From Botryllus schlosseri (lineage: Eukaryota), in NCBI GenBank assembly GCA_051294905.1, contig CM119371.1:3226001-3290000 (forward strand): a stretch of 64,000 nucleotides of DNA, written 5' to 3'. Positions 26,866-55,000 of the stretch are shown one piece after another. The notes below the pieces were generated by a model that was given only the letters and a program-made list of their open reading frames with translations, did no database searches and had not been told where the DNA came from. The position numbers and the translations under genes were made by a program. The stretch's first letter is position 1, and each line of letters begins with the position of its first letter.

Positions 26866-27763
26866 AATTAGACGGTTGGGGTGCCCCAGTCACGGTCCTG
26901 CACAAAGGAATGAATCGAAAACGAGTGATCACGCAAACTGCGCTGTTTAGCGATGAGCCAGAACGTATCTGGTCTGTACTTGTCGCTCGCATGTCGACAA
27001 ATGACACGTCTGGAACTTCAAGTCAAATCGAACATGTTTCCAGTCCTAATATTACCTCACGAAGTTTTTAATCTATTTAGAATTTGATGGTTTGTTTATT
27101 TTATCAATGAACAAGCCTTCAACATTGCATCTCGAAATTAAGGTTTAAATTTGTAATTTCCCTGGCGGACAGACAGTAATGTCACCACGGACCGGCGGTT
27201 GAGAACCACTGATCTAGTTCACAATCACATTACATTAGCATTTCATGCGCATCAATGGCACATAGGCCTATCCGTCTGAGGTCGACTACAGAATTCATAC
27301 CTAAGTGTTGGAGGTTTAATTAGGTTCCTCCTCGCCATCTCGCCCGCGGGAGCGTTTTTTTTTTTCGAAAAGCTAAGAAGTGGGTCGTGCTACAAGTCGA
27401 CAGATGCGGAATAAAAAATCCAAAAAATCGGTCTGGTGTTAATGACCACTATAGTCGACAGACACCATGAATCGAATACCCCAAACAAACGAACAATGTC
27501 ACACAATGCTCATGTTCAACAATTAGCCCTGGTAGCGCTCACGTTCAATATTCTGCGAACTTATGCAGATTTTATATATAAAGTTATATTTTTCCGACTG
27601 AATGTAAGGACTTATTTACCGGCCGTGTGCGTATTTAAGATCTTTCGACTATTTCACCCATTCGATTGTGATGATGCCAACAAAGTCATGATACACTATA
27701 AGCGACCCTTAATAATCAATCAGTTTTGCGGCAGAATAGCTGCAGTAAACCATGACTACTTAC

Positions 27764-29203
27764 CGCTGTGAAGGTCACTAGTAGATTTCATGTGAACGAT
27801 GCCTGTAACGAATCTTCGAACCACGGACCATCGTTTCTCATGTAGATGTTGGTCATCAAAATGAGAGAACATTTCGAGCTCCATTTCCGAGATAAAACTA
27901 GCTGCCAGAAACTCCTGCATGCTTTGATGACAGAAGAAGAATGTGAAGTCGCCTTCCATCAAGTGACGGCTGAGGATGTTGTTGCCAGGGACTTTCATCA
28001 TCAAATCCTGCACTTCGTCAGCGGAAACTTTAAACCGATCCAAATCTGCTTTGTAGAATACGACTCGCCCCTCTTTCATGCCTTCAAACGCCATTGCTTT
28101 CAATTTCTGGATAATCGAGAGGATTTGCTTTCTGTTTCGCATATTTTCCACACTCTGTAAGACTAACAGGATCCTGCTGTACAGTTCTGTCACGGTAGAC
28201 GGAGGAGGTCCATCTGGATCCATTCCCATCACCACTGCTATCAAAATCAGGAAAACCGGGACTGATACAAGTTGTAATAATAGCGGTGACATGATTTCAA
28301 TCTTCTCCCAGAGATGCTGCCCGTTGTCAAAGAGAAGAGACGTGAACAGTTTATAAGCGTCTTGTGTCGTGAGACCATTGAGTGTGATAATTTCTTCAGG
28401 GCGTGCTTGCGCCGGTAATTCGGAGACTTTGAATTCACGTGACGAGACGAGTATCTTGACGTGACGAAGGACACTGCGGGATAAGATATTATACATGATG
28501 ATCGGAGAGCTTGCTTTCTGATACGGTGTAATTTTTCGGACGCTGCTCTCCTCGAAATCCCACTGCATTTGATCAAGCCCGTCAAAAATGATAATTGCAT
28601 CACTTTGATTCTCGACCAGCCATTCGAAAGCATTTTCCTCTTCAGATTCATTTTTGAAGAGACCGTCGAATAGAAACTTGGATGTTTTGATACCGCTCTT
28701 GTCTTCCTTGTTCTTCAATTCAATATAATGTATCATTTTTCGTTTTGGTTCACCGTTGTCACTCACAGATGAAATTCCGAGCGCTTTTTTAGCAATTCTA
28801 CGCATGAGGATGGTTTTACCCGATCCTGCAGACGCGACGATAGCAGTGTAACCAACTTTGTAATTTGAAGGTAATTTTTCATACTTTGACAGCGATTCCA
28901 TTATCTTTGCCATTGTTATCGATTTACCGTCGTTGTCGGATTGACGATAAAACCCGACTTCCTCTATCATCTGACTTTGAAAATCTTTTCTTCTAGATCC
29001 ATGAACAGTTTCGTCAGTTGCAGATTTTTTATCGCGAAAACGGCCTTTGTAGTAGTCATTAACATTGACCTTCTTCATTCGCGGGAAAACCTCGAAGTCA
29101 GGTTCGTGAAGAAATTCATTCTTGAAGTCTTCACGAATTCCACTTGCCGTTTCTTGACGAGTATGGTCGTTTATAACTTCTATCAATTTCTTGTATTTAA
29201 CGC
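27764..29203 (-). CDS. NLR gene, large NACHT (STAND NTPase) exon
   Basis: 1440-bp phase 1-1 exon (ttttctgcag|GC...G|gtaagt). Walker A ASAGSGKT, Walker B IIIFDGLDQ, sensor-1 ILVSSR, HD1 VPVFL, WHD FFFCHQSMQEFLAA, HD2 WSVVRRFVTG. Confidence 0.95.
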
Positions 29204-29306
29204 CTGCAGAAAAGAGAGCTTAAATTAGGAAATATATCAAAACTGCTTCGTCATATCGGCTGTAAGAAATTATTGCAAATGGTACCGGTACCTTCTTACA
29301 CTAGGA

Positions 29307-30289: not shown

Positions 30290-30394
30290 CACTAGGACAC
30301 TGTCCTCAAACCTAATTGTTGTAGCTACATCAGCATGACGGCCGATTTAAACCGGTCAGAGTTCGAGTGTTGCTGAATGTAACCTACGACAGTT

Positions 30395-31094
30395 GGTGCT
30401 TCTTCGATATACGCCCGAGATCAAAACAGTGTTCCCCATGACACCCGTAAATGTTTTTCCATGAACACGATATAAATTTATAAACGTCAAAATATTTTTT
30501 TCCTCGTTTGAATAGACGGATATTAGGGTTGGTGGAATGGATATATTGGTGTTGGATGTGGGTTAGGTTCAAAGTCGGGGTTAGGGTATCCCAAGAGTAG
30601 GGTTGGGGGAGAGGGGAGAATTAGGGTTGGGGAAACCCTAACCTCAACTTCAACCCTAACCCCAACCCACATCCAACTCTAAGAACCCCCTCCCCCAACT
30701 CTGATATTCCCCTTCCCAAACCCTAATTTTGAGATACCCCCAATTCAACTTTGACCCTAACCCTAACCCGCATCCAACTCTTATACCCCTCCCCCAACCT
30801 TAATATGCCCTTCTTCAACCCTAATCTTGGGATACCCTAACCCCAACTTTGACCCTAACCCACATCCAACCGTGATATCTCTCCTTCCTCTTCCCTAATA
30901 CCCCGTCGCCAACCGTAATCTTGGGATACCCTAACCCCAACTTCGACCCTAACCCACCCCCAGCCCTAATATCTGTCTCTCCAAAGGCAAAAAAAAATTT
31001 TTACGCTTATAAAATTGTATCGTGCTCATGGGAAGCACTTGCTGGTGTTACGTGAAACACTGTTTCGATCTCGGGCGTATATCGAAGAAGCGCC
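30395..31094. mobile_element. MITE copy A with (TTAGGGTT)-like internal repeats
   Basis: TIRs gg(t/c)gcttcttcgatatacgcccgagatc.aaacagtg at both ends. Confidence 0.9.
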
Positions 31095-31228
31095 AAACAT
31101 TCAGCGGGAATCATGTCGCGTTAAGGGAGACTGATCTACTACAGGGTTGGATAGATATTTGTAATGATTCATTGGAGATAATGGTGGGCTAGCCAGGATT
31201 AGATTTCGGAGAAATATGGTAACTGTCG

Positions 31229-31883
31229 GGCGCTTCTTCGATATACGCCCGAGATCGAAACAGTGTTTCACGTAACACCAGCAAGTGCTTTTTTTGCCTT
31301 TGGAGAGACAGATATTAGGGCTGGGGGTGGGTTAGGGTCGAAGTTGGGGTTAGGGTATCCCAAGATTACGGTTGGCGACGGGGTATTAGGGAAGAGGAAG
31401 GAGAGATATTACGGTTGGATGTGGGTTAGGGTCAAAGTTGGGGTTAGGGTATCCCAAGATTAGGGTTGAAGAAGGGCATATTAAGGTTGGGGGAGGGGTA
31501 TAAGAGTTGGATGCGGGTTAGGGTCAAAGTTGAATTGGGGGTATCCCAAAATTAGGGTTTGGGAAGGGGAATATTAGAGTTGGGGGAGGGGGTTCTTAGA
31601 GTTGGATGTGGGTTGGGGTTAGGGTTAAAGTTGAGGTTAGGGTTTCCCCAACCCTAATTCTCCCCTCTCCCCCAACCCTACTCTTGGGATACCCTAACCC
31701 CGACTTTGAACCTAACCCACATCCAACACCAATATATCCATTCCACCAACCCTAATATCCGTCTATTCAAACGAGGAAAAAAATATTTTGACGTTTATAA
31801 ATTTATATCGTGTTCATGGAAAAACATTTATGGGTGTCATGGGGAGCACTGTTTTGATCTCGGGCGTATATCGAAGAAGCGCC
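31229..31883. mobile_element. MITE copy B, near-identical to copy A and in the opposite orientation
   Basis: Same TIRs; the internal sequence is the reverse complement of 30395-31094 with small indels. Confidence 0.9.
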
Positions 31884-31964
31884 GAATGTTTTGCTAAGAA
31901 AACTGAGCCGTTGTCCGCAGTGTGGTTGTCGTTGTTGTTGCCGATATGGATCGTCGAGTTATTA

Positions 31965-33062
31965 CAGGGGTGGGCAAACTACGGCCCGCGGGCCGCATGC
32001 GGCCCGCCACGTCGTTTTGTACGGCCCGCGAGAGTCTAAATAAATTTTTTAAAAATTTTGATAAAATGCGTACTAAAAATCGAATTAATGCAGGGACTTG
32101 ATTAACTTTTCTTATTATATTTCACCAGGATAATTCTAAGACAGTGGTTTTCAAACTGGTGGACGCAACCCCCTTGGGGGCGTGAAAGCCTCTGAAAGGG
32201 GCGCGAAGCTGAGCTTGACTGATAAAATTTTTGTGCTACGCGCAATTTTCAGCCAAGTCAGTGTTATTGCTATGTATTTAGTCTGAATTACATATTTAAA
32301 AATCTCTTATCCACAGTCGTATTCTTCACGCCATCAAACTACCCGTTAGGTTTGCTTCCATTCTGATTGCGTTTTGCGATATGACGATAAGAGGCCGTGA
32401 AATCTTTGACCATCATAAGGGGGTGGGGCGTGTCTTAAAAAGTTTGAGAACCACTGATCTAAGGTAAATACTTGATATCACAGCGGGGTAGCTGCAACGA
32501 GATTGACATAATTTGGATCACCAGTGAGGTTTTAGATTGCCCACTTCATTTTTAATTATTTCAGTGATGTGCTTATAAAAAACCGATTCGGGCGTGTTAT
32601 AAGCACATTCGTTGTCTGTACGCGTGGAATGGGGGTATGTATATTTTACCTACACAAAGTAGAAGCGTGTTTGAAGCTAACATGGTTATGATGCTGTTAG
32701 CATCGTGTGTCCTGGAACTGAGCCAAAAGTGGAATTACTAAATCTATGAACAGATCACTGCTTACAGATTTATATTTCAATCATATTCTAAGAATAGGGC
32801 CAACGGCCTTTTATCTCTATAGTTTTGACAAATTGGTTATTGAGGTCCGCCTGCCTATGAAATCTCGCCACTGTATGTTTCTGACGCGTGTACGATATCA
32901 TCAAAGCAATATTTGGCTTGTTTTAAATAAGCACATATATTGTCTCCACGCCATATATCAATATTACGTTTTGGGTTATAATCCCAATTTTATATAGTGC
33001 GGTCCGCGAATGAATTCAGATGTTGAATGCGGCCCGCGAGCTCAAAAGTTTGCCCACCCCTG
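31965..33062. mobile_element. hAT-type MITE with a nested MITE at 32142-32456
   Basis: TIRs caggggtgggcaaact / agtttgcccacccctg with perfect TSD agttatta; nested cagtggttttcaaact / agtttgagaaccactg with TSD ttctaaga/atctaagg. Confidence 0.9.
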
Positions 33063-33920
33063 AGTTATTATATTGTGACGTTGAAACCTTGACAGCGGCT
33101 TAACCTAAGGTCACGGAAAGGTAGTAGGACGTTCATTGATTGTGTAACAATTGGTTTGCAGCTCAACCTTTCGTGGCTCTGGAGCATTTGCCATTTCGTC
33201 AGATACCGAAATCAAAATCCAAGATTGAATACCGGATGCCGCGACGCTGCCAGAGATCGACTATTATACCAGAGACAAGAGATTGACTATTAATTCAACA
33301 CCGTGTAGTGGGCGAGTCTGATATCATAGAAATGTTGAATTAGGCGAATTGGAGGGACCGTTATACGATCGGCAACGCAGGACCATAACATCACTTTGTC
33401 AGACCCACCCTCCTCCCCGACAAAAAATCATTGGTATTGGGGAGTAGTTAGTATGATCGGTCGTGGTGTGCCATTGTGGCTTATGGGTGCGGCGGCGATT
33501 CGCCTGGAAACCCGGGGTGGCGATTCGCCTTTTTAGACCCCCCTCTGGGCCGCGATTCGCCATGTGTTCTTATGGGTGCGGTCGTGATTCGCCTTTCCAG
33601 GTATAGGCCGCGGTCGTGATTCGCCGTGAAAACTCGTGGTCGTGACTCGCCTTTTTTGCTATAGGCGGTGGCGGCGATTCGCCTGTCGTGTATTCTTACG
33701 GGATCTGTGGTGATTCGGCATGTGTTCTTATGGGTGCGGTCGTGATTCGTACTTTCGGTATAGACTGCGGGCGGCATGTCGTACTTTCAGCAAAAAAGGT
33801 GTGAAATAGTTTGCCAAGTCTAGGAATCACTTGCAAGGTAATATTTTGGTATTTAGTTTACCACAGAGCCGGCGTAGACGGCGATTCGAATATCAACAAT
33901 AACAACGCTCACGAATTAAC

Positions 33921-34876
33921 CAGTGTTGGGATCAAGTCACTACCTTCGAGTCACGAGTCATTTCGAGTCATTGCACATTTTGACTCGAGTCAAGTCAAGT
34001 CAATCGATTTTTGAAGGTGACTCGAGTCAAGTCAAGTCACTAGATTTTTGGAGGTGACTCGAGTCAAGTCGAGTCAAGTCAAGTCAAGTCACGAGTCAAG
34101 TCACAATTCAAGTCAAGTTGCCTTTTCAAAATGTGAGACATGGTTACGTAATTGAATCTTGCTAGCTGTATAAAATACAGATTGAGTGGTCATTGATTTT
34201 GAACAGATGAACGAATATAGATTTAAATGTGCAAGCAAGAAGGCGCTGTATCGCTCACATATACCTACAACTGCTAACTACGTAAGTAATTGCAGAGTCT
34301 CAGGTTATAGTTACGAGCCAAAATCGAGAAAAGAATTTATAAGATACAATACATTATGTATTTACAAATTGATTCGACCTGCGCCAATGGTTGAGGGCTA
34401 TATACACGATATTTGAATTATATTTCAATAAAACAAGAGGTTTGCTTGAGGTAAGAACAGTGAACAGAAATAAAAATTTTGCTATTAAATTGCTCTACTA
34501 TACTAGTTTGCGACAACATAAGCTGTAAGTTTCGGTCCTATGGTTTGCGGTCAATTTATTAGGGAGAGAACAATAACGACTCAATAAAACGCACGACTAA
34601 TGAATGATTGGTCGCTCTCACGGGTTACACCAGCGTTTCGCGAGCAATCTGAACATATGCAAGATACAATATTTTTTGTCGACACCGATTACTTGATGAC
34701 TTGAAATTGACTCGTGAATTTTGCTCCGAGTCACGAGTCAATCCTCATTTCTGATACGCCGAGTCAAGTCAAGTCAAGTCATTTCAGCAAAGTGACTCGA
34801 GTCAAGTCAAGTCATCCGAAAAAGGTGACTCGAGTCTGACTCGAGTCAAGTCATGACTCGAGTCATCCCAACACTG
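33921..34876. mobile_element. hAT-type MITE inserted in the left arm only of element 1
   Basis: TIRs cagtgttgggat / atcccaacactg; TSD gaattaac; the empty site (single gttaattc) is at 45823-45830 in the right arm. Confidence 0.95.
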
Positions 34877-37800
34877 GAATTAACACTTCAAATAGCTGTG
34901 AAATAGTTTGCAAAACCCCGCGATCGCTAACAAGATAATGTCTCGGTCATAACCATCTTTCACGACTTGGTGTCATAACCATACCGATCGCTCACGCGGA
35001 GAAATTTTAGTAATCAGTTTGTCACAGAACTTGATATCGCTGGTAAGATTTAACAAGTAACGAATAACAGACCGCGGTAACTTGAATAGCGACAAATTGT
35101 CACTTATTTCCGCTCTAACCCTAATCCTTTGTGAAGTGAACGCTTATTCAAAAGGGTGTGATATAATTTTAAAATCCAACGACCACTCACCGGATAATAC
35201 TTCAGACATAGCAATTCCTCATACCCGCCCACAAGGTAATATTTCGGTAATTAGTTTGTCACAGAACCGTCGCAGGCGGTGATTGGAAAACCGACAATTT
35301 GTCACTCGCCCGCGATCGCTATATGTTTCACGCCTCCAGAATAGTGGCTGACTTTAGTTGCGTGATAAGATCCATGAAAATATTCAATCAATGTGTTAGT
35401 TTATCAACTTGAAATGAAACTCACTACACAAATCAAGTCGATTCGTATCTGAATGTTTTAAATCGGTACAACTCTAATCCTTTGACAAATCCCATAACGC
35501 GTTTTTGTTGAATCGAACGTAACCCGAATATTACTGACGCCGACTTTCAGCCGCATCGAATTATTCGCACATTCCGCGCCACTGTTTTCACACTTATAGA
35601 ATCAATACCAACTATAACTCTACAAGAATCAAGAATCACAAGTATGTGCATTACACAGTTATTGTCTTTATTAACTTGAAATCAAACACTTAACAAAAAC
35701 ACGCAACTAATCATTTGGCAACTCTAGCATTACCAAAAAATTCCAGTATTGTTGATTGAAAATCCTTGAGTCATTATTATCAAAAATGTTATAGTACCGC
35801 ATCGAAATCCATTCGCGGGATGTACTAAAGGTAAATCCAGATAATCCAAAATGAAATATTTGGACTTTGACAAACATGACTACCAACTTTGATCCAGTCA
35901 TATTTCAAGATCATACTTTGAAACAATCCTTGAAACTTACAACTCTATTCACGACTGAGTTTTCCGTTTATCAAATAGAGTTTCAGTAAATACTATCGCG
36001 ATATTTAATGTGTTACTACACACAATAGAATCAATCAATGAAATACCACCTGTTGTAAATATTTCTAACTTGACAACCACTTGTGCATACCGTGATCAAG
36101 TTGCGACGCGATGAGTTAAATCGGGATATTTCAATCTATTTGTCGAAACCTTGAACAAACTATCAGGTTATTTATTGTTGTAATCGAGTGAACGGAAATA
36201 GTATTACGTCTCAACATTTTAACATCTCCCCATACACAAAAGAGTAAAATACAAAAAAACCTTGTCAAGTCAATCCGTTTGTAACTTACCCAACCAAAAC
36301 AAAAAGTATCCTTATGAAAAGTAGACAAGACTACGTGAGTAATCACCACAATCCAAAATCCATAGCAAGTTCGGTTGCATTCATAGTCCACCAACTCGTA
36401 TTTTTATTCCACTTTAAAAGTCGTTACTATTCCGCAAGACAAAGAAATTACTATGTGGTATATTTTGTAAGACAAAAGTAATTACTTCTCAGTGTCGGCG
36501 ACTTGAGATTAACATACTATGTTTGAGTATACGAGATTTGACAGTCTGACCATCGTAGTTGAGAATTCATCTCTTACAATCGAACACAGGTGTTATATCA
36601 AAAGTTATCATACTGTAAACATAAGGATTGACACATTGATTTGACGTATTTAATAGTTGATCACGACTTGATTATTAAATTATTCGCGTTAATTAAACCC
36701 GCGTTGTGTTGAAAGTTATGACAGTAACAAACTTTTCGGAAACGTTGTTATTAACATATTGATTTGTAAAACTATACTTGTCTGAAATGTTCTTGATTTG
36801 GAAGATATTCCGTGTTGGTACAAATCACTCTGCGTATTGCGGATATCAGGAAATATTTTACAAATGTAATTGTTTCCAGTAACCAAGACTAAAGACGAAA
36901 CAACAACATCGGTATTATTACATTCAACAACCAGTACAATTATTAAAATCTATCGTTTGCTATAACCGGGGCTAAAGATGTAACAATTCCATTATTCATA
37001 TATTGAAACGACTAAGTGGAGAATCATTAGGCCTATATCACAATATCGTTACTATTGAATCCAACGATTTATTGTCGGAATTTGTGACAGAGAATTGAAA
37101 CATATGCACTTTACAGAGTGTGAAAATATCACTTTGAGTATCGAGTACCGTTCGAAGCTAGCGATCAATTCTTAATCATTTCAGTAACTCCCCATTGTGC
37201 GTGCCAAATGTAAAATATCGCGAGGTTATACACTCTAAGACTTTGATTATTGCAAAAGTAAATTGTGATATGTTTGTTAGATGCATCCAATTCAACTAGA
37301 AGTGTCTAGTGCCCAACACTCGTAATATCGAAAAAGTACTTGCCACACTGTTATTTGCTAAACGTGTTTTGCATTGTTGCTCATTTCTAGTATTGATTGA
37401 AATCATTCTCGAACCCTCAAATAGTAATTCCCGACATGAAACCAAGCCGCTGAAAGTCGTTACCATCACGAAGATACAATGTGCACGATGTTTGTCAAAT
37501 GTGTCCTACCTGGCCAACAGAAAACAATTTTCACTCACTCGAAATGAAACCAATGTGATGGTCTCCATTCGATATTTTGTTCGTGTCAAATACTTTGCAA
37601 TGAACACATTTGCGTGGTTGAGCTTTGCCATCATCAAGCTGTCATTTGTATCTTTTAATTAACCGACATTTAGCGATTGGTGAACATACCGACCGATACA
37701 CAGTCACTTCGAAATACTCCGTTGATCGTAATTTCCATCATCATAATAATCGAAGTACAATTGTTTCGAATCGATAGACTGGTTGAGCTTTACATCATCA

Positions 37801-39259
37801 GACTGCCATCTGTACATCAAGAATACATCCGTCTTGTAACTGGGTCGTTTACCTAACCGAGTTGTATGCACCGTTTGATATTTAGCGATTGCAGAACATA
37901 CCATTTCGAAATACTACGTTGATCTCAATTCCTTTGTCGTGATAATCGAAGTATATTTGTTTCGATTTCATAAAAACCAACTTTTCTATGACATGATAAA
38001 TTTTTGAAAAGTTATACTTAGAAGGTTGGTGCATATCGCGAAAAATAATATACCATGCATATTGATATTGCTACTCCATTGATCGGTATTTTCACGCGAG
38101 TCGATTTTCAAATGAGTAAAATTTATTACATGAGTTTCTCCGCTTAATGTAAATGAAAACTCAGTCGTCTTTTAACATCACAAAGACATTGATAAAATGT
38201 AAGCAATCAAACACAACACTTTGTACGACACTAATTATTGTTCCACACATCTCATTTCATACTAAGTGTATACGAAAGATATTCATGTTACACGAAAATA
38301 TTCGCTCATGCTACAAACCTGTACAATGATTGGTGGTGTAAGGCCAGCCCAATTGTGGTATCCATCCGAGTTTAGTTAACACAATTTACGACACCGAGGT
38401 CGCCTCATCTTTCGTAAGACAACAAACCAAGGCTTCAGGATATGTCCATGTCATAACAATAAATCAGCTACTCCAACAACAGAGTACATATGTTTTCTAG
38501 CACGGTGCTTACATCTTACACACAAATCAACCCACTTTGCTAACGAAAAGTGCTGAGTCATCACAACAATACAACTAAAACATACTATCATACAAAATGG
38601 CCGTTATAGTCACCAATGGTACATCGTACCAGTAACAAGTCTCGAGAATCAAGTTTTCCAAAAAACGTGAAAGTATTTCTACACCAAGTCGTTATGTTGA
38701 CGAAGACGTATATTGTAATATCATGATCGATTTACATTCGTTGGTCACAAAATGTCACTACTCTAAATAATTATTTTTCACTCAAAGCCTACTTGTCACC
38801 ATTCGTTTCATCAAGCACGAGTTCAAGAAACCTGCTACGACGTGAATTGATATTTTTATGTTGTGTAAATAGGTAATAATCAATTTTAGTAACACTATAT
38901 CAACATCATCGAGTTGTGCGAATAGATTTACATGTGGTCTTGTGGTTTTAATCGAAGTATACAGCACGGTCTAATGTAGAGTCATCTCTATTGTACAACA
39001 ACTCGGTAATCGAAATGCATTAAAATTTAAACAACGATCTTGTTTCGTCGCACCAAAAATATGTTTACTATCACGATACTCTGCACAGGTCGTGTAAATC
39101 CTTTTCACACTCGTAATAGTATACCAACGGATACCGGCGACAACGTTTAACAATACCAACGACACTAAATATACGATACCTACCCAAGTAAAATTACCAT
39201 TTTCACCTGGAGGTCGGTCGTTACCCGAGTAGAAATACCATTGTCCTTTGGAGATTTAT

Positions 39260-39740
39260 CGTTTACCCAGTGTAACAAACCCCTTACCCTTTGGAAATCT
39301 ATTTTTTCTCTGGGTAACAAACCTTTTTCACTTGGAAATATATTTTTTCTCTGGTTAACAAACCTTTTTCACTTGGAAATATATTTTTTCTCTGGGTAAC
39401 AAACCTTTTTCACTTGGAAATATATTTTTTCTCTGGGTAACAAATCTTTTTCACTTGGAAATATATTTTTTCCGCGGGTAACAAACCTTTTTCCCTGAGC
39501 AAGAAACCATTTTCACTTGGTGGTCCATCGTTTTACCCGAGTAAAAATATCATTTTCTTTTGGAGATCCGGCGTTTACCCAGTGTAACAATACATTTTCA
39601 CTTGGAAAAATACTTTTACCTAGAGTAACTAATCATTTTCTCCTGGGTAACAAACCCTTTTCGTCTGGAAACTATCATTTACCTGAGTACCAATACAGTT
39701 TTCACTTGGAAATCTACCTTCTCCCTGGGTAACAATATCA
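39260..39740. repeat. ~39-40-bp tandem array inside the arms (aaacctttttcacttggaaatatattttttctctgggtaac)
   Basis: Several near-perfect units plus degenerate flanks; mirrored at ~42200-42680 and present in element 2 at ~54720-55260 and ~57640-58180. Confidence 0.9.
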
Positions 39741-41128
39741 GTTTCGTTTTGAAAACTGACAACCACACCGGACAATTTGATATTTTTGTATATTGTTACA
39801 ACGGGCAGCGACAAAATATACACCAACAACGACTCCGATACATTTGTCTAATCAAATATTCACTTGATCTGATGCATCCCATCAAAATCATTGGTTACTC
39901 ACATACAATAACAATGAACTGTTGTACATCGACATGTATGTTTTCGGAATTGGCGAATAAATGGGTTTCCGATATGTCCGTGATGTCCGGGTTCGTGCTT
40001 TGGATTTTCCAGAGTCAAAATGCCTGAATAAAACACCTCCTCGACTTTGGTAGCTGGTTGATACACGGATAATGGTATTCGGAAAACGGATGAATTTATG
40101 TTCCCCATCGCGCCAACAACTCCGGGTTACTTGTGAGTTTCCTCAGCTCTGTTTACTATATTGTGTCTTTACTGATCAATACATGTCGCTCCAGTAAGCT
40201 GAAGCCGGATCACTAATATGAGAAAGTGTGTGGGGGCCTGATCCGGATATTCACTCATGAACCAACGACCAATATTCAAGTAAACATGTTACAGACAGTG
40301 TTTTGTCTCCATGAAAAATACCAACCATCACATACAAGTAACGTCACGATTGTTCACAAGTATTCGCGTAAACCAGGTGTACATACAATGTGTCGGTGTA
40401 CAAACATCACGGAAAACAAATTCATGTTCTCAAGTCTCATCATGCGACGACTCTGTACATTCAATGTGGGCATAGATGACTTGGGGACAGGCAAGCAGCC
40501 ATATTTGGACGTAACATGGTCTTAGTATGAACCGGCCTCCGCCCAACTTGTGAAAAATGAATCTCACACGAGTACAATCCTTTCACGGTTTACACCTTGA
40601 TTTTGCAAGATTGTTTGGATTCTCAGGTAGACTTGCATCGTGATCCGGACCTCGATATAATCGTGTTGCGTAACTCACTCAATCCCTGCGTATCGTTGGT
40701 CATAACCTGCTAACTTTTTCGCCGAGACCGCAGTGTTTCACCTGGTTTTATGTATTTGGCGATCACCATCGTTATCAATCTTTCAGGTGATGAATATGCC
40801 GGATGTTGCTACTCCCACATAACGACTCCAGCTAAACATCGTGAGCAGTGACTCCGGATTGAAATCGTAAACAGGGACTCTGTGTGTGTGTGTGAATCTC
40901 GAGTTCGAATACGATTAGATAATGTAATCCAAGGTGTGTCTCTGCGGGTTGAAGACTGATTTCTTGTTAACCACTCCGCAAGAGGGTGCTGTCTCGTAAT
41001 TCTACATGTCGTTATAAAACGTGGTTGGAAACTTTTGGTCTAGTTGATCCAGCTACGTATTGAAACGGTGCACTCACGCAGACCACTGAGAAAACGTTGT
41101 CGTTACCTGACTATATCCACGAGTAATT

Positions 41129-41404
41129 ATGGGACTACGCATAACGTTCCATAGATTCCTCTGGCCCCACACCGTGGTTTTACGACACAGACAAGATGCA
41201 GCGGTGGAAATATTGAAAATGAAAAACGATACCTTGGTGACATTTGATTTGGATTTTACACCTGATGAACCATACACTCGATTGGTACATTGGGATGACA
41301 ACTCTATCGTCGAGGTCGAGGGAAAAGAAATGTACAGATTTGTTGGTGTTGTGGATATTCAGCGAAAATCAGGGTATATGGTTGTGTATGGTTCGCATAT
41401 TTGA
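41129..41404 (+). CDS. 91-aa hypothetical protein in the loop of element 1
   Basis: Intact ATG..TGA; aligns without gaps to 56371-56096 at 55/91 identities (hand count), with synonymous changes (FTPDEPY: cct/ccc, gat/gac, cca/cct). Confidence 0.75.
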   Translation: MGLRITFHRFLWPHTVVLRHRQDAAVEILKMKNDTLVTFDLDFTPDEPYTRLVHWDDNSIVEVEGKEMYRFVGVVDIQRKSGYMVVYGSHI

Positions 41405-44400
41405 CTGAGAATATATCGGTATGCATAATGCACTGTCCATTGTGTCATGACGTGTGTCATCTATGGCCACATTGAATGTACAGAGTCGTCGCATGATGAG
41501 ACTTGAGAACATGAATTTGTTTTCCGTGATGTTTGTACACCGACACATTGTATGTACACCTGGTTTACGCGAATACTTGTGAACAATCGTGACGTTACTT
41601 GTATGTGATGGTTGGTATTTTTCATGGAGACAAAACACTGTCTGTAACATGTTTACTTGAATATTGGTCGTTGGTTCATGAGTGAATATCCGGATCAGGC
41701 CCCCACACACTTTCTCATATTAGTGATCCGGCTTCAGCTGACTGGAGCGACATGTATTGATCAGTAAAGACACAATATAGTAAACAGAGCTGAGGAAACT
41801 CACAAGTAACCCGGAGTTGTTGGCGCGATGGGGAACATAAATTCATCCGTTTTCCGAATACCATTATCCGTGTATCAACCAGCTACCAAAGTCGAGGAGG
41901 TGTTTTATTCAGACATTTTGACTCTGGAAAATCCAAAGCACGAACCCGGACATCACGGACATATTGGAAACCCATTTATTCGCAAATTCCGAAAACATAC
42001 ATGTCGATGTACAACAGTTCATTGTTATTGTATGTGAGTAACCAATGATTTTGATGGGATGCATCAGATCAAGTGAATATTTGATTAGACAAATGTATCG
42101 GAGTCGTTGTTGGTGTATATTTTGTCGCTGCCCGTTGTAACAATATACAAAAATATCAAATTGTCCGGTGTGGTTGTCAGTTTTCAAAACGAAAATGATA
42201 TTGTTACCCAGGGAGAAGGTAGATTTCCAAGTGAAAACTGTATTGGTACTCAGGTAAATGATAGTTTCCAGACGAAAAGGGTTTGTTACCCAGGAGAAAA
42301 TGATTAGTTACTCTAGGTAAAAGTATTTTTCCAAGTGAAAATGTATTGTTACACTGGGTAAACGCCGGATCTCCAAAAGAAAATGATATTTTTATTCGGG
42401 TAAAACGATGGACCACCAAGTGAAAATGGTTTCTTGCTCAGGGAAAAAGGTTTGTTACCCGCGGAAAAAATATATTTCCAAGTGAAAAAGATTTGTTACC
42501 CAGAGAAAAAATATATTTCCAAGTGAAAAAGGTTTGTTACCCAGAGAAAAAATATATTTCCAAGTGAAAAAGGTTTGTTAACCAGAGAAAAAATATATTT
42601 CCAAGTGAAAAAGGTTTGTTACCCAGAGAAAAAATAGATTTCCAAAGGGTAAGGGGTTTGTTACACTGGGTAAACGATAAATCTCCAAAGGACAATGGTA
42701 TTTCTACTCGGGTAACGACCGACCTCCAGGTGAAAATGGTAATTTTACTTGGGTAGGTATCGTATGTTTAGTGTCGTTGGTATTGTTAAACGTTGTCGCC
42801 GGTATCCGTTGGTATACTATTACGAGTGTGAAAAGGATTTACACGACCTGTGCAGAGTATCGCGATAGTAAACATATTTTTGGTGCGACGAAACAAGATC
42901 GTTGTTTAAATTTTAATGCATTTCGATTACCGAGTTGTTGTACAAAAGAGATGACTCTACATTAGACCGTGCTGTATACTTCGATTAAAACCACAAGACC
43001 ACATGTAAATCTATTCGCACAACTCGATGATGTTGATATAGTGTTACTAAAATTGATTATTACCTATTTACACAACATAAAAATATCAATTCACGTCGTA
43101 GCAGGTTTCTTGAACTCGTGCTTGATGAAACGAATGGTGACAAGTAGGCTTTGAGTGAAAAATAATTATTTAGAGTAGTGACATTTTGTGACCAACGAAT
43201 GTAAATCGATCATGATATTACAATATACGTCTTCGTCAACATAACGACTTGGTGTAGAAATACTTTCACGTTTTTTGAATAACTTGATTCTCGAGACTTG
43301 TTACTGGTACGATGTACCATTGGTGACTATAACGGCCATTTTGTATGATAGTATGTTTTAGTTGTATTGTTGTGATGACTCAGCACTTTTCGTTAGCAAA
43401 GTGGGTTGATTTGTGTGTAAGATGTAAGCACCGTGCTAGAAAACATATGTACTCTGTTGTTGGAGTAGCTGATTTATTGTTATGACATGGACATATCCTG
43501 AAGCCTTGGTTTGTTGTCTTACGAAAGATGAGGCGACCTCGGTGTCGTAAATTGTGTTAACTAAACTCGGATGGATACCACAATTGGGCTGGCCTTACAC
43601 CACCAATCATTGTACAGGTTTGTAGCATGAGCGAATATTTTCGTGTAACATGAATATCTTTCGTATACACTTAGTATGAAATGAGATGTGTGGAACAATA
43701 ATTAGTGTCGTACAAAGTGTTGTGTTTGATTGCTTACTTTTTATCAATGTCTTTGTGATGTTAAAAGACGACTGAGTTTTCATTTACATTAAGCGGAGAA
43801 ACTCATGTAATAAATTTTACTCATTTGAAAATCGACTCGCGTGAAAATACCGATCAATGGAGTAGCAATATCAATATGCATGGTATATTATTTTTCGCGA
43901 TATGCACCAACCTTCTAAGTATAACTTTTCAAAAATTTATCATGTCATAGAAAAGTTGGTTTTTATGAAATCGAAACAAATATACTTCGATTACCACGAC
44001 AAAGGAATTGAGATCAACGTAGTATTTCGAAATGGTATGTTCTGCAATCGCTAAATATCAAACTGTGCATACAACTCGGTTAGGTAAACGACCCAGTTAC
44101 AAGACGGATGTATTCTTGATGTACAGATGGCAGTCTGATGATGTAAAGCTCAACCACTCTATCGATTCGAAACAATTGTACTTCGATTATTATGATGATG
44201 GAAATTACGATCAACGGAGTATTTCGAAGTGACTGTGTATCGGTCGGTATGTTCACCAATCGCTAAATGTCGGTTAATTAAAAGATACAAATGACAGCTT
44301 GATGATGGCAAAGCTCAACCACGCAAATGTGTTCATTGCAAAGTATTTGACACGAACAAAATATCGAATGGAGACCATCACATTGGTTTCATTTCGAGTG

Positions 44401-47250
44401 AGTGAAAATTGTTTTCTGTTGGCCAGGTAGGACACATTTGACAAACATCGTGCACATTGTATCTTCGTGATGGTAACGACTTTCAGCGGCTTGGTTTCAT
44501 GTCGGGAATTACTATTTGAGGGTTCGAGAATGATTTCAATCAATACTAGAAATGAGCAACAATGCAAAACACGTTTAGCAAATAACAGTGTGGCAAGTAC
44601 TTTTTCGATATTACGAGTGTTGGGCACTAGACACTTCTAGTTGAATTGGATGCATCTAACAAACATATCACAATTTACTTTTGCAATAATCAAAGTCTTA
44701 GAGTGTATAACCTCGCGATATTTTACATTTGGCACGCACAATGGGGAGTTACTGAAATGATTAAGAATTGATCAATTGAATTGTTTCAAAGTATGATCTT
44801 GAAATATGACTGGATCAAAGTTGGTAGTCATGTTTGTCAAAGTCCAAATATTTCATTTTGGATTATCTGGATTTACCTTTAGTACATCCCGCGAATGGAT
44901 TTCGATGCGGTACTATAACATTTTTGATAATAATGACTCAAGGATTTTCAATCAACAATACTGGAATTTTTTGGTAATGCTAGAGTTGCCAAATGATTAG
45001 TTGCGTGTTTTTGTTAAGTGTTTGATTTCAAGTTAATAAAGACAATAACTGTGTAATGCACATACTTGTGATTCTTGATTCTTGTAGAGTTATAGTTGGT
45101 ATTGATTCTATAAGTGTGAAAACAGTGGCGCGGAATGTGCGAATAATTCGATGCGGCTGAAAGTCGGCGTCAGTAATATTCGGGTTACGTTCGATTCAAC
45201 AAAAACGCGTTATGGGATTTGTCAAAGGATTAGAGTTGTACCGATTTAAAACATTCAGATACGAATCGACTTGATTTGTGTAGTGAGTTTCATTTCAAGT
45301 TGATAAACTAACACATTGATTGAATATTTTCATGGATCTTATCACGCAACTAAAGTCAGCCACTATTCTGGAGGCGTGAAACATATAGCGATCGCGGGCG
45401 AGTGACAAATTGTCGGTTTTCCAATCACCGCCTGCGACGGTTCTGTGACAAACTAATTACCGAAATATTACCTTGTGGGCGGGTATGAGGAATTGCTATG
45501 TCTGAAGTATTATCCGGTGAGTGGTCGTTGGATTTTAAAATTATATCACACCCTTTTGAATAAGCGTTCACTTCACAAAGGATTAGGGTTAGAGCGGAAA
45601 TAAGTGACAATTTGTCGCTATTCAAGTTACCGCGGTCTGTTATTCGTTACTTGTTAAATCTTACCAGCGATATCAAGTTCTGTGACAAACTGATTACTAA
45701 AATTTCTCCGCGTGAGCGATCGGTATGGTTATGACACCAAGTCGTGAAAGATGGTTATGACCGAGACATTATCTTGTTAGCGATCGCGGGGTTTTGCAAA
45801 CTATTTCACAGCTATTTGAAGTGTTAATTCGTGAGCGTTGTTATTGTTGATATTCGAATCGCCGTCTACGCCGGCTCTGTGGTAAACTAAATACCAAAAT
45901 ATTACCTTGCAAGTGATTCCTAGACTTGGCAAACTATTTCACACCTTTTTTGCTGAAAGTACGACATGCCGCCCGCAGTCTATACCGAAAGTACGAATCA
46001 CGACCGCACCCATAAGAACACATGCCGAATCACCACAGATCCCGTAAGAATACACGACAGGCGAATCGCCGCCACCGCCTATAGCAAAAAAGGCGAGTCA
46101 CGACCACGAGTTTTCACGGCGAATCACGACCGCGGCCTATACCTGGAAAGGCGAATCACGACCGCACCCATAAGAACACATGGCGAATCGCGGCCCAGAG
46201 GGGGGTCTAAAAAGGCGAATCGCCACCCCGGGTTTCCAGGCGAATCGCCGCCGCACCCATAAGCCACAATGGCACACCACGACCGATCATACTAACTACT
46301 TTGGGGCCCCATACGGTGATATGCCCGACTTTTCGGGTAAGAAGTCCATTTGGCTTTAGTTTTTGGGCTGCTACTTATCAGCGAGTTTTGTGTACTGTTT
46401 GGCAAGTCAGCTTTAGTCGTCTAGACTCGCGAAAGACGAAATTTTTATATAATACATGACTAAATCGGTCAATATGATCAGGAATTGGATATATATGTTG
46501 TTATCATTTTTTTATTTCCTCTCTGGTCATTTAACCAGATTTATTGGTAGAACTGAGTGAGTTGTCTTGGAAAATGTAGGGGCCGTTAATAATGATGAAA
46601 CAACTTCGGGCGGACCCGTTGGTATAATGATTTTATCGCATGATATTATTTAGTGACCTCCTGTCTGCTATGTCGAAAGATACTGGCAAATAATTTTTCC
46701 CTGCGAGATGACATCTGTCTTGTGGGATTCAAATTTCTTGGACAGGAACGTTCAGCGTCATATATTTAGCGGCTATGGACATATTGGACAATATATCGAA
46801 GTTTTCGGTCAGTATAGGGGCGGTCTTTTTCAGCCAAGGATTTCTCTCTGGCGATTTTCCTGACACACTTCTCGGGGTCGCATGTGACATGGCCTAAAAC
46901 CACATATATCTTGGTACGTTGTGGCACCGTAATGGCCGAGGCCGAAATGTCAATTTCTCTAAATAATGCTCATCTGTTCTTGGGGAGGTAACCAATACTC
47001 AGGATATTTGGCAACAATAAATCGCGCGCAACGCGGAACATTTATGAAAATGTTGGATATCTATGAATTTCCCAAATTTCCAATTTCGTTAGGTTTGGGG
47101 TACCACAGAAGCCTGAACACTAATGAAATCTTCAAGACTTCCAGGCCTGGAAAAACTTCTTCACATATTTTGAACATCATTGTAAAGGTGCCTTCAGCAG
47201 ACCCTTCCCCAAATTTACAAACCGTATTGAATAAAGAGCATTATACTCAC

Positions 47251-49000: not shown

Positions 49001-52000
49001 AGTAGTATAGTAGATCGCTCACATGACGCGCTTTTTAACATGGGGTAGTATAGGGCCCGCTGGTGAGGTGCCGCGAAACTCGTGTTGGTGATGGCACCCT
49101 TTTGACCCCCCCTTCCGCTGGTGAGGTGCCATGGGTTCTTATGGGATCTCTGGTGATGGTACCCTTTCAGGTATAGGCTGCGTCAGTGATGTGCCGTGAA
49201 AACTCGTGTTGGTGAGTCGTATTTTCGGGTATAGGCTGTGTCGGTGATGTGCCTGTCATGTATTCTTACGGGATCTCTGGTGATGTGCCATTGTCTCTTA
49301 TGGTATCTCTGGTGACGGCACCCTTTCAGGTATAGGCTGCGTCGGTGATGTGTCTGTCATGTATTCTTACGGGGTCTCTGGTGATTCGCCATGTGTTCTT
49401 ATGGGTGCGGTCATGAATCGCCCTTTCGGGTCTAGTCAACTCTCGCGCTGTGTTGAATAGGTATCAGGAATAGTAAATAGTCACGTGATTGATTCTTAGT
49501 TAATGTGTACATTACAAATTATTAAATATGACTGATTCGAGTTAATCCCAACGTTTACGGTGAGTACGACAATGATATATCGTTATTCTTATGGCGGGGG
49601 TGGCATGCGGCTCTTATGTCTTACGGCGGGGGTCGCATGCGGCTGGGAAATCCGGGGTGGCAAGCGGCTCTTTTGTCTTATGGCGGGGGTGGCATGCGGC
49701 TATTTGTGTCTTGTGGTCGCACGGTAATCCTTTCAGGTAGAGATGATTTGACTAACGTTGTGGGTATAGGCGCGGCGGCACGGTGTTGAATATGTACCAG
49801 ATGAATAGTCATGTGAATGTACCTTTGTTAATGTGTATATCGTAAATTATTATATATGATGTAGTTTAGTCGTGACAAACGACCGATCGTCTCAAGTCTT
49901 TTCGCGCTGTGTCTATTGATTTCTACGTAACCTGAATAGTACTTTCAGATCGGATTATTCGCACCTTGTATACCGCTGTTTCGCACCTACAGAATAGTCT
50001 GCTGTTCACAACCACAACAAGAATCACAAGTATACACATTTATACATTCATTCATTACTGTCAAATCAAACTAAAGCACGCACAATCGTATCATTAACTT
50101 TTTTTTACCATCACCCAAAATAATTCAAGTATTCCTTGGCTGAAAATCCTTGAGTCCTTATTATCAAAAATGTTATGGTGCGGTGTCGGAATCCATTCGC
50201 AGGATGTACTAAAGGTAAATTCAGATAATCCACCCGCGATCGCTCACAAGATAATACCTAAGACATAACCATCGCTCGCGACTCGCTGTTACATGCATGC
50301 CGATCGTTAACAATGTAATATTTTGGTAATTGGTTTGCCACAGAGCCGGCGTAGACGGTGATTCGAATATCAACAATAGCAGCGTTCACAAACCAACACT
50401 TCAAAAACGCGTGAAATAGGTTACAAATCCCACGATTGCTCACAAGATAACACCAAAGACATAGCCATTTCTCGCGTCTTGTCATTACATACATCCCAAT
50501 CGCTACAGTGTAATATGTCGATGGTTGTTACTATCAAGTAATAAGTAATGAATAACAGTACCAGCGCAGACCGTGATTCGAAAACCGACAATTTGACACT
50601 TGCACGCGATCGCTATATGTTTTGACACTTCATAACAGTCGTTGACTTTGCGTGATACAAATCATGAAAATATTCAATCAGTGTGTCAATTTGTCAACTT
50701 GAAATGAAACTTACTACACAGCTCAAGTTGATTCGTATCTGAATGTGTTAATTCGGTACAATTCTAATTATTTTGAGTAATCTTTTTAACGCGATCAGTT
50801 GATTCGAACGTAACCTGAATATTACTGACTCCAACTTCAGCCGCATCGAATTATTCACACATTCCACACCGCTGTTTCACACCTATAGAGTCAACACCAA
50901 CTAAGTCAACAAGAATCAAGAATCACAAGTACGCACATACAATCATTGCATTTATCAACTTGAAATCAAACAATTAACAAAAACATGCAACTAATCATTT
51001 GCCAACTCTAGCATTACCAAAAAATTCAGGTATTGTTGATTGAAAATCCTCGAGTCCTTATTATTAAAAATACGGGGTCGGAATCTATTCGCGAGATGTA
51101 CAAAAGGTAAATTCAGATAATCCAAAATGGAATATTTTGACTTTGGTATAGTGTGAATTGAAATAGGACTGACAAACATGACTACCAACTTTCACGCAGT
51201 CACATTTCGAGATTTCGGGCATATTGATTTGAAACAAGTATTGAAACATCACAACTCTATTCACGAATTGACTTTACGTATGTCAAAGAGAGTTTCAGAA
51301 ATACTATCGCTATGACATCTCAACATATTAACATCTTGTCATACGCAAAAGAGTAAAATACAAAAACCTTGTCAAGTCAATCCGTTTGTAACTTACCAGA
51401 CCAACTCAAACAGTATCAGTATGAAAAACAACCAAACATACACGAATCCATACAATCACTAAAACCTTAAATCCGTAACAAGCTTGGTTGTATTCATATC
51501 CCTACGACGCATCTTTTTTATTCAACTTGAAAAGTCGTTACTATTCTGTAAGATAGAGGAATTACTACGCGGTATATTCTGCAAGACAAACTAATTACTA
51601 CTCGGTATATTTTGTAAGACAAAAGTAATTACTTCTCAGTGTCGGCGACTTGAGATTAACATAATATGTTTGAGTATACGAGATTTGAAAGTCCGACCAA
51701 CGTAGTTGAGAATTCATTTCTTACAATCGAACGATGGTGTTATATTCAAAGTTATCATGCTGTGAACATAAGGATTGACACATTGATTTGACATATGAGA
51801 TTTTGTAATAGTTGATCATTACTTTATTATTAAATTATTTGCGTTAATTAGACACGGCGTTGTGCTAAATGTTATGACAGCAACAAACTTTTCAGTGCCA
51901 TTGTTCTTAACATATTAAGTTGTAAAACTATACGTGTCTGAAATGTTCTTGATTGGAGAATGACTCCACCTCGATAAAAATCACTCTGCGTATCGCGATA

Positions 52001-55000
52001 TCAGGAAATATTTTACAAATGTAATTGTTTCCAGTAACCAAGACTAAAGATGTAACAGCAATATCGGTATTATTACATTCAACAACCAGTACAATTATTA
52101 AAATCTATCGTTTGCGATAAACAACGCTAAAGATGCAATAATTCCATTATTCATACATTGAACATCCGATACAAAATGCTTTATTATCCCGATTCGCAAC
52201 GGGTAATTGAAACGACTAAGTGTAGAGTCAGTATATCACAATGAGACGTCGTTACTATTGAATCCAGCAATTGATACGATTTATTGCAGGGATTTGTGAC
52301 AGCGCATTGAAACATACACAACTTACAGAGTGTGAAAATATCACTTTGGGTATCGAGTACCCTTTGAAGCGCGCGATCAATACATAATTCCAGTCGCACT
52401 CTCTAAGACATTGTGAAGTCTACGGATTTACACTTCAAGACTTTGATCAACACAGAAGCAATTTGGAATGTCTTTACTGGACGCATCCTATTCTACTAGA
52501 CTTGAGTATACGCAAAACTCATAGCATTAACAAAATCGCAATAGGCGCTACACTGAAATTTACAAAATGTGTTTGTATTCTTGCTCAAAGTAGTGATCAT
52601 GAATTATCATTTGAATCTTCTAAAGTAATTGTAATCGTAAAACCAAACTTGCGAAAGTCATTACCATAACAGAAGAATATTGTAGGTTGCTTGCTAAATG
52701 TATGCCGGAAATATTTGTAGAACGCTCACGACCAAAGAAATCGGAAATTGTCATTCATCAAAGTAAATGTCGTCACAATACTCTGCCGCTAAAAGACGTT
52801 ACTCGTATGTGATTGAATCGCCGGTGATTAACTCGCTAAATCAAACCCTAAGAAATTTCACTCACTCATCGGATATTAAACAGCGTCGCTTAATCGGTGT
52901 AGTTCGTTTTTTTTTTCTAAATGCAAATCATACCTAGCCAAGAGAAAACAATTTTCACTCACCCGGTAATGAAACCAAGCGGTGGCTCTTCGTTCGATAT
53001 TTTGTTTGCGTCAAATACTTTGCAATGAACACATTTGAGTGGTTGAGCTTTACATCATCAAGCTGTCATCTGTAAATCGAGATTACATCCGACTTGTAAC
53101 TCTATCGTTTAACTAACCGAGTTGTATGCACAGTTTGATATTTTGGTCATTTAGTGATTGCTGAACATACCAAACGATGCACACCCACCTCCGAAATACT
53201 GCGTTGATCTTAATTTCCATCATCGTGATAATCGAAGTACATTTCCCTCGAATTCATAACAACCAACTATGACATGATAGATTTTTGACAAGTTTACTTA
53301 GAAGGTTTGTTGCATATCGCGAAAAATAATATACCACTCACATTGATACTTTTACTCCATTGATCGATATTGTCAAACGAGTAAAATTTATTACTTGAGT
53401 TTCTCCGCTTACTATATGTAAATGTAAACTCAGTCGTCTTTCAAAACCATAACAAACAATGATAAAAAGTAGGCAATCAAACGCTGCAAGTTTAACTTTT
53501 GTAGGTTGTGTATGATTACCCCACGCAACTCATTTCATACCAAAGGTATATGAAATATATTCATGTTACACGAAAATACTCGATATTCCCATGCTACAAA
53601 CCTGTACAATGATTGGTGGTGCTTTCAAACTGTTTCGATACCTCAAGAACTTTATTGTCTGAATGGTTGTTCATGTATCTTAATAATCAAGTAGTTCAAC
53701 ACAGAACTAGTATTAACAGAAACACCAGAGTTGTTTACACAAAAGTTTGTATGTGTACAGTATACGAATACCATGTGTAAGTCCAGCACAATTGTGGTAT
53801 CCATACGAGTTTAGTTAACACAATTTACGACACCGAGGTCGCGTCATCTTTCGTAAGACAACAAACCAAGGCTTCAGGATATGTCCATGTCATAGCAATG
53901 AATCAGCTACTCCAACAACAGAGTGCATATGTTTTCTAGTTACGGTGCTTACATCTTACACACAAATCAATCTACTTTGCTAACGAAATGTGGTGAGTCA
54001 TCATATGGTTATCCTCACTAGTAAAACATACTATCATACAAAATGGTCGTTATAGTTTGCACACCAACGGTACATCGTACAAGTAACAAGTCTCGAGAAT
54101 CCAGTTATTCAAAAAACGTGAAAGTATTTCTACACCAAGTCGTTATGTTGACGAAAGCGTATATTGTAATATCATGATCGATTTGCATTCGTTGGTCACA
54201 AACTGTCACTACTCTAAATAATTCTTTTTCACTCAAACACAAACGCATACTTGTCACCATTCGTTTTCATCAAGTACGAGTTCAAGAAACTTACTACGAC
54301 ATGAATTTTTATTTTTATATTGTGTAAATAGGTATTAATTAATTCAAGTAACACTATATCAACATCATCGAGTTGTGCTAATAGATTTACATGTGGTCTT
54401 GTGGTTTTCGTCGGGACATACAGCACGAACTAACTGTAGACTCCTCTCTGTTGTACAGCTACTCGGTAATCGAAATGCATTAACATGTAAACAACGATCT
54501 TGTTTCGTCACACCAAAAATATGTTCACTGTCGCGATACTCCGCACAAGACGTGCATAGCCTTTTCACACTCGTAATAGTATACCAACGTCAAGCGATAA
54601 CGTTTAACAAGACCAACGACACTGAACCCACGACGTTTACCTATGTAAAATTACCACTTTCACTTCTCAGTCCATCGTTTACCTGACTAAACATATTATT
54701 CTCCTTTGGAGATCTGACGTTTACCCAGAGTAAGAAACCATTTTCACTTGTAAATATATTTTTTCCTTGGCTAACAAACCTTTTTTCACTTGGAAATATA
54801 TTTTTTCTCTGGTTAACAAACCTTTTTTCACTTGGAAATATATTTTTTCTCTGGTTAACAAACCTCTTTCACTTGGAAATATATATTTTTCCTCTGAGCA
54901 ACAAACCATTTTCATTGGAAATATATTTTTCCCTGAATAACAACCCATTTTCACTTGTAAATATATTTTTCCCTCAGCAACAAACCTTTTTCACTTGGAA

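Follow-up and report, generated by a model that had tools for sequence, protein, structure and literature searches.

A two-layer palindromic element family with Maverick/Polinton-like ends in Botryllus schlosseri, probably non-autonomous and mobilised in trans

In a 64,000-bp stretch of the genome of Botryllus schlosseri (assembly GCA_051294905.1, contig CM119371.1, positions 3,226,001 to 3,290,000 of the forward strand; hereafter the window, numbered from its first letter), we identified a large palindromic element, copy 1, which spans positions 33443-46300 (12,858 bp, or 11.9 kb without a nested insertion) and is followed by a diverged relative, copy 2. The ends of copy 1, its length and the target site duplication (TSD) around it suggested that the element is probably a non-autonomous Maverick/Polinton derivative mobilised in trans, and that the high-copy family to which it belongs would most plausibly have been derived from, or be parasitic on, Maverick/Polinton elements. 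The new points are a palindrome built in two layers, arms that co-evolve, and an orphan gene of 91 codons.

Each of the 23 AGTAGT sites in the window was tested against each of its 21 ACTACT sites. Agreement at no fewer than 28 of 30 terminal bases was seen for three pairs, and only one of these, 33443/46300, was flanked by identical 6-bp sequences, namely TTGGGG at 33437-33442 and again at 46301-46306, the remaining two being arm-to-arm matches within copies 1 and 2. The left terminus from 33443 reads AGTAGTTAGTATGATCGG, and the right terminus up to 46300 is its exact reverse complement, ending in ACTACT. A first-pass annotation made from the letters of this DNA had described AGTAGT/ACTACT termini with a perfect 6-bp TSD, and both were read here at these positions. 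The sequence flanking copy 1 is otherwise unique, and AGTAGT starts three different elements of the window, at 33443, 49001 and 60665. No paralogous empty site was found within the window, and the terminal 21-mer and 18-mer had no matches in metagenome and viral contigs.

Mavericks/Polintons are defined by a protein-primed family B polymerase and a retrovirus-like integrase, and Tlr1 elements have sometimes been regarded as non-autonomous Polintons, according to the passages of PMC5499653 used here; long inverted ends and 6-bp duplications are given as marks of the order in an excerpt of PMC8969392. For vertebrate Mavericks, the sections of PMC8097293 on which we draw report 5′-(AGT)2//(ACT)2-3′ as the commonest end motif, with (AG)3//(CT)3 also included in the end criterion. 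In the same sections, the duplications are 6 bp long and perfect, the inverted ends measure 46-1,447 bp, whole elements range from 12.7 to 24.6 kb, and the presumed role of the end repeats is to allow jumping-back in protein-primed replication. Copy 1 resembles these elements in its (AGT)2//(ACT)2 ends, its inverted ends, its perfect 6-bp TSD (n = 1 complete copy) and its length, which at 12.9 kb, or 11.9 kb once the nested insertion is subtracted, is at the lower edge of that range. The first-pass statement that such ends and a 6-bp TSD are hallmarks of Polinton/Maverick elements is therefore in agreement with the vertebrate signature given in those sections (PMC8097293). Unlike Mavericks, the element has no detected gene for a protein-primed polymerase, integrase, ATPase, protease or capsid, pairs over 4.8 kb per arm instead of the reported 46-1,447 bp, and is seemingly present in very high copy, with a 91-codon orphan as its sole conserved frame; its perfect outer repeat of 1,529 bp is by itself already past the vertebrate range.

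The coding capacity of the element is small. The longest frame in copy 1 has 132 codons, and none of the 78 frames of at least 55 codons in the two copies reached the Pfam cut-off (best E 0.012). When five arm segments were compared between the copies, codon periodicity was absent and 7 of 58 indels were multiples of three, and no polymerase, integrase or capsid gene was detected in the element. Outside the copies, no Maverick gene was found in 44 of the 45 window frames of at least 85 codons, the frame left out (28250-28714, − strand) being one that overlaps a NACHT-domain frame; searches for RNA families over 30000-64000 and for tRNAs over the whole window found none. The absence of replication genes claimed in the first-pass annotation was borne out by the Pfam and periodicity results, and its statement that there is no long open reading frame (ORF) is right as to length but passes over the conserved 91-codon frame in the centre. 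As the ends and the TSD fit but the Maverick gene content fails, the element could only be a non-autonomous member of this group.

Copy 1 consists of two layers of inverted repeats around a unique centre. The left outer repeat lies in two parts: 33443-33920 (+), which begins with (AGT)2 and has 0/478 mismatches to 45823-46300, and 34877-35927 (+), which has 0/1,051 mismatches to 44780-45830. Its right counterpart is unbroken over 1,521 bp (44780-46300, −) and terminates in (ACT)2. Bases ~50-310 of each end hold a subterminal array of about nine copies of an 11-mer (GGCGATTCGCC-like) at a spacing of ~25-36 bp, a motif that is altered in copy 2. Inward of the left outer repeat lies an unpaired segment of 1,235 bp, U1 (35928-37162, +), which the right arm lacks and which is homologous to 51170-52388 of copy 2. 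It is followed by the left inner repeat (37163-40480, +), which mismatches the right inner repeat (41456-44773, −) at 16 of 3,318 positions and contains 41-43-bp tandem repeats at ~39181-39754. The inner repeats enclose the 975-bp centre (40481-41455), homologous to the centre of copy 2 in opposite orientation relative to U1, and a 6-bp filler (44774-44779) stands where the right arm skips U1. The paired total is 4,847 bp per arm, which amounts to 75% of the element, or 81% when the nested insertion is excluded. The 975-bp loop of the first-pass annotation is this centre, and its arms of about 4.8 kb hold in length; its picture of an almost full palindrome with scattered substitutions has to be amended, as the left arm carries two unpaired stretches (the 956-bp nested insertion and the 1,235-bp U1) and all 16 differences lie in the inner tier, the outer tier being perfect.

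The insertion that divides the left outer repeat is an unrelated hAT-like element of 956 bp (33921-34876, +), present in the left arm only, with ends CAGTGTTGGG.../...CCCAACACTG and an 8-bp duplication, GAATTAAC, at 33913-33920 and 34877-34884. The end consensus of hAT elements is of the CAG/TAG type; this and an 8-bp duplication are found in the nested insertion (CAGTG...) and not in the main element. In public sequencing runs, contigs carrying the insertion-free joint 33912->34877, with eight shared letters, were found in X1 (five contigs) and X13 (one contig), and loose contig ends occur at the borders 33921 and 34876 in all four of four runs. The joined contigs and the loose ends together indicate that the nested element is a later, unrelated hAT-like insertion. 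A fragment related to it lies at 5867-6083 of the window. The inner palindrome was also considered as a separate nested transposon, and this was ruled out by the lack of a duplication at 37163/44773 and by a different boundary in copy 2.

Comparison of the arms revealed two tiers of identity. In copy 1, the outer 1,529 bp of each arm are identical and the inner 3,318 bp carry the 16 differences. Together the two copies have 27 arm mismatches, every one of which is confined to the inner repeats (combined P 5e-4 under a uniform rate), and the switch between the tiers is located at the junction at which U1 is missing from the right arm. The nested hAT-like insertion, which lies in the perfect outer repeat of one arm, has been neither copied nor erased. 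In the simplest reading, the molecule that integrated had perfect outer repeats, and its inner repeats already differed.

The arms of a copy also resemble each other far more than they resemble those of the other copy, the identity being 99.5-100% within a copy and 77-88% between the copies. Among 40 variant rows listed out of 394, 22 concerned inner-repeat positions compared with the family contigs of run X1. At 17 of these 22, both arms of copy 1 share a letter absent from nearly all X1 family contigs; at four the arms differ, with the right arm carrying the family letter, and at one the reference letter is that of the majority. The arms of copy 1 are each other's closest relatives. Since the two subfamilies are 12-23% apart and the arms of each copy at most 0.5% apart, the arms must have been kept alike along each lineage.

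The first-pass annotation had mentioned a related copy 2.7 kb away and considered the element a family and not a one-off, which agrees with our results, as copy 2 (49001-60664, +) is itself palindromic and many related contigs occur in public runs. Its left end reads AGTAGTATAGTAGATCG, its right end is broken off at 60664, and its BLAST segments are 77-88% identical to copy 1. The outer repeats (50083-51217 with 59530-60664) show 0/1,135 mismatches, the inner repeats (53364-55989 with 56907-59532) show 11/2,626 mismatches, and a centre of 917 bp occupies 55990-56906. The left arm of copy 2 likewise bears an unpaired segment (51170-52388), and the outer breakpoints of the unpaired segment in the two copies are ~20 bp apart in homologous coordinates (chance ~0.007). 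The junction that skips this segment has a 3-bp microhomology in copy 2 and the 6-bp filler in copy 1. The layered architecture and the two-tier identity are thus common to both copies, and the boundary between arm and centre lies at a homologous position. Since two subfamilies 12-23% apart have the same arm/centre boundary, the palindromic design is inherited and belongs to the family. The family architecture comprises an outer inverted repeat of ~1.5 kb, an unpaired segment, an inner inverted repeat of ~3 kb and a centre of ~1 kb that includes the 91-codon frame, followed by the mirror image.

The centres of the two copies are homologous (72% overall, with blocks of 80-91%) and inverted relative to the arm that bears U1. 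This orientation could be the product of a centre flip, as expected from recombination between long inverted repeats, or of the loss of U1 from opposite arms in the two lineages. Copy 2 further contains ~880 bp absent from copy 1 (49430-50310), between the subterminal array and the remaining outer repeat. Inside it, a second array of four 32-bp units (49583-49701) resembles a different subterminal array, and the extra ~880 bp may represent a recombinant end. The truncated right arm of copy 2 is abutted by a third, different element with subterminal repeats (60665-64000, +), which begins with AGTAGT and runs off the window. It starts AGTAGTATTATACAGC and, from ~130 bp inward, has repeated units with TTACGTCA-like words; its frames of at least 85 codons within the window gave no Pfam match.

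The abundance of the family was assessed from the contig pieces of public runs that match the 8.7 kb from 32900 to 41600 with an identity of at least 90%. Run X1 yielded 258,809 pieces, 71,670 of which are at least 99% identical, and X4, from an independent study, yielded 25,056. From X13, which bears another species label, came 1,165 pieces, 277 of them at least 99% identical, and the flank bin was nearly empty. The summed word depth in X1, which is not a copy number, was ~1e5-4e5 in the arm bins, 2.5e4-6.6e4 in the centre bins and 1.3e3 in the mostly unique flank bin. Four studies with independent runs, as well as another species label, contain all parts of the element, the centre among them, and X12 and X13, with two other species labels, hold about one third of the sampled 31-mers of a 10-kb stretch. 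These results suggest that the family is high-copy and partly very young in the source organism, and that it is also present under at least two further species labels; the sharing with X12 and X13 could mean either a very close relative species or movement of the family between species. In every run, the nested hAT-like miniature element exceeds all other parts of the region in abundance. In the RNA run X23, of which ~6% was read, arm bins had a mean depth of 0-3.5 per direction and the bins of the 91-codon frame less than 1, values too thin for a statement on expression, and most RNA reads fell on the nested hAT-like element, on both strands. A run search for RNA runs holding the sequence listed none.

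The only conserved frame of the element, judged from sequence comparison, is ORF91 (41129-41404, +; 91 codons at 41129-41401 and a stop at 41402-41404), located in the centre. A TATAAAA lies ~110 bp upstream (41013), and no AATAAA was found on the + strand within 2.4 kb downstream. The homologue in copy 2 (56099-56371, −) has one in-frame stop at codon 22 and aligns to ORF91 free of gaps; in the open part, 62% of the residues are identical and 83% positive. The protein database contains five homologues, 90-93 residues long, derived from short contigs and 63-98% identical; all five share the start methionine, four end at the same stop and the fifth is two residues longer, and one, itself intact, is a member of the copy-2 subfamily. 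For the two window copies, the ratio of nonsynonymous to synonymous divergence (dN/dS) was 0.33 for ORF91 (dN 0.28, dS 0.85) and 0.52-2.2 for the other five frames, and substitutions in ORF91 numbered 26, 15 and 31 at the three codon positions (P = 0.06). ORF91 is probably a real small gene.

ORF91 also appears to be an orphan. Searches for its relatives gave no Pfam match, no PHROG below E 0.076, no solved structure below E 0.59 and no Atlas hit, and no longer relative was present among 14 candidates. An exhaustive HMMER search with ORF91 returned P0002 and P0004 only, and P0004 was ruled out as a relative because it is a translated tandem repeat. The candidates L001-L003 were likewise dismissed as chance, as they match just the short peptide pattern of the search (16-41 residues) and show no further likeness. 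The AlphaFold model of ORF91 has a mean predicted local distance difference test (pLDDT) score of 45.8, at which the fold prediction is unreliable. We would guess that the protein is a DNA-binding or helper-modulating factor.

Several points weigh against a Maverick origin. The Maverick link is drawn from the end motif, one duplication and the size; the TSD comes from a single complete copy, the (AGT)2//(ACT)2 motif is documented for vertebrates, and no autonomous Maverick is present in the window. High copy number is unusual for Mavericks, and the paired repeats exceed every Maverick inverted end in the reports drawn on here by a factor of 3-4. The constraint on ORF91 was estimated from a single DNA pair, with a phase test at P = 0.06, and database proteins are biased towards intact frames. 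Finally, none of the contigs or single reads listed bridges the whole palindrome, and its reality rests on internal evidence. This last point, together with the fact that inverted duplications can be created by long-read assemblers, would fit an assembly artefact arising from a chimeric fold-back read, or else a local inverted duplication of host DNA. Such an origin would leave much unaccounted for: the exact ends and the 6-bp TSD in otherwise unique flanks, a nested element with its own 8-bp TSD and a 1,235-bp segment each confined to one arm, the 16 substitutions, the same layout in the diverged copy 2, and the occurrence of all parts in independent runs of four studies and another species label. 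Given the asymmetries, the substitutions, the unique flanks and copy 2, we regard an artefact as very unlikely.

A different explanation would be that the element is of the foldback type and non-autonomous, but belongs to some other cut-and-paste superfamily, be it a known or an undescribed one, with a transposase that happens to produce a 6-bp TSD and with long ends that have grown through repair copying of one end from the other, as has been proposed for Galileo. Long, internally repetitive inverted ends, subterminal arrays of short repeats and tandem repeats within the arms are typical of foldback-like elements, a high copy number fits cut-and-paste miniature elements, and the window holds other foldback structures, such as one at 2164-5157 with a 9-bp duplication. 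The closest parallel is Galileo, a foldback element of the P superfamily, which in the passages of PMC3573991 used here has very long, internally repetitive inverted ends that are 98-100% identical within a copy without protein priming, that grow by repair copying which recruits internal sequence, and that are longest in non-autonomous copies. Such end identity means that arm identity alone is no pointer to protein-primed copying, a further point against the Maverick origin. Galileo differs from our element in its 7-bp TSD, its ends of up to ~1.2 kb and its P-type transposase (PMC3573991), as against a 6-bp TSD, AGT-repeat ends and 4.8-kb arms with a second, inner repeat layer. In the same way, a 6-bp TSD is unlike the 7-bp class of Galileo, the 8-bp class of the nested hAT-like element and the 9-bp class of 2164-5157, and no remnant of a transposase, of the P type or any other, was detected in the 78 frames. 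As repair copying in Galileo lengthens and matches ends without protein priming, the cut-and-paste explanation, though unlikely, keeps an appreciable share of the probability.

The first-pass annotation had compared the element to a snap-back or copy-back defective genome, and each copy could in principle be a fresh accident of this kind, a defective Maverick genome that was then integrated, with a palindrome that is not inherited. The near-identical arms within each copy would be expected of it, and template switching typically leaves junctions such as those that skip U1, with a 6-bp filler in copy 1 and a 3-bp microhomology in copy 2. Among protein-primed replicons, defective genomes keep the replication ends, lose the genes, depend on a helper and can be inverted duplications of one end. 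Yeast linear killer plasmids have hairpin derivatives, and Daniell is said to have found in 1976 that defective adenovirus molecules can carry long inverted duplications. According to an excerpt of PMC5033970, incomplete adenovirus particles carry left-end DNA. Defective genomes of this kind, unlike the present one, arise sporadically within one infection or cell. Here we are dealing with an inherited, integrated and diversified family that has a fixed turn-around point and a small gene of its own. Two subfamilies 12-23% apart share the arm/centre boundary, a homologous centre of ~1 kb with the 91-codon frame, and nearly the same outer breakpoint, and independent accidents are not expected at the same points; moreover, no coding remnant of a parent Maverick was detected in the arms or the centre. 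A one-off origin of each copy is accordingly not upheld, and we consider it improbable.

Turning back to a Maverick derivative mobilised in trans, its life cycle can be sketched. Protein-primed replication and the formation of virions are ascribed to Mavericks, although to our knowledge neither has been directly shown in animals. A Maverick integrase acting in trans would insert the element and produce the 6-bp duplication, and a protein-primed polymerase, also supplied in trans, would start copying at its repeated AGT ends. The single strand set free by strand displacement might fold back on itself, and fold-back repair would prevent the two arms of a lineage from drifting apart. Renewal of the outer 1.5 kb might take place at or near each round, with one end copied from the other; such renewal would leave the outer repeat perfect and the inner repeat with older differences, and would also explain the junctions that resemble template switching. 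The subterminal 11-mer array would be a likely docking site for helper proteins, and the 91-residue protein would be the sole product of the element's own.

A bolder reading is that the family is not wreckage but a true satellite, that is, a hyperparasite of Mavericks: a mini-genome whose unique sequence of ~6.5 kb is maintained in the form of a nearly complete inverted dimer of ~12-13 kb, copied by protein priming from the AGT-repeat ends, with arms re-matched in each round through fold-back of the displaced strand and a private 91-residue protein acting on the helper or on the 11-mer array. We put this forward as a speculative idea that is more probably wrong than right. The length of the inverted dimer would, on this satellite reading, reach the size accepted by the capsid or the replication machinery of Mavericks. 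No description of non-autonomous palindromic Mavericks was found in a full-text literature search; Repbase and Dfam probably contain entries for non-autonomous Polintons.

The window also contains features apart from this family. The 3-kb foldback at 2164-5157 has arms of 41-, 65- and 106-bp tandem repeats, and the 9-bp word GCTGATTTC stands a few bases outside each arm, likely a 9-bp duplication of a family different from that of the palindromic element. A small palindrome of 1.5 kb at 30389-31889, whose arms measure 375 bp (98%) and 236 bp (100%), lacks AGTAGT ends and contains 94-bp tandem repeats rich in TTAGGG-like units. Four kb upstream of the element, a 487-codon frame (27756-29219, −) encodes NACHT and NOD2 winged-helix domains, as in an NLR-type immune gene, and its nearest Atlas clusters are cnidarian and chordate. 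A satellite-like tandem array of 41-bp units, about 25 in number and with a higher-order period of 264 bp, lies at 271-1469.

The youth of the family, seen in the perfect outer repeats and TSD and in the many contigs of at least 99% identity, implies that a helper is active now, or was recently, in this organism. The perfect outer and older inner repeats, the private variants shared by the arms and the centre flipped between the copies form a record of the copying mechanism. The long, near-perfect palindromes are hard to assemble and prone to rearrangement, and the 91-residue orphan protein offers a concrete experimental handle. Should the satellite reading hold true, no dependent satellite of an animal polintovirus would have been described before this family, and the family would provide indirect evidence that Mavericks replicate via single-stranded fold-back intermediates.

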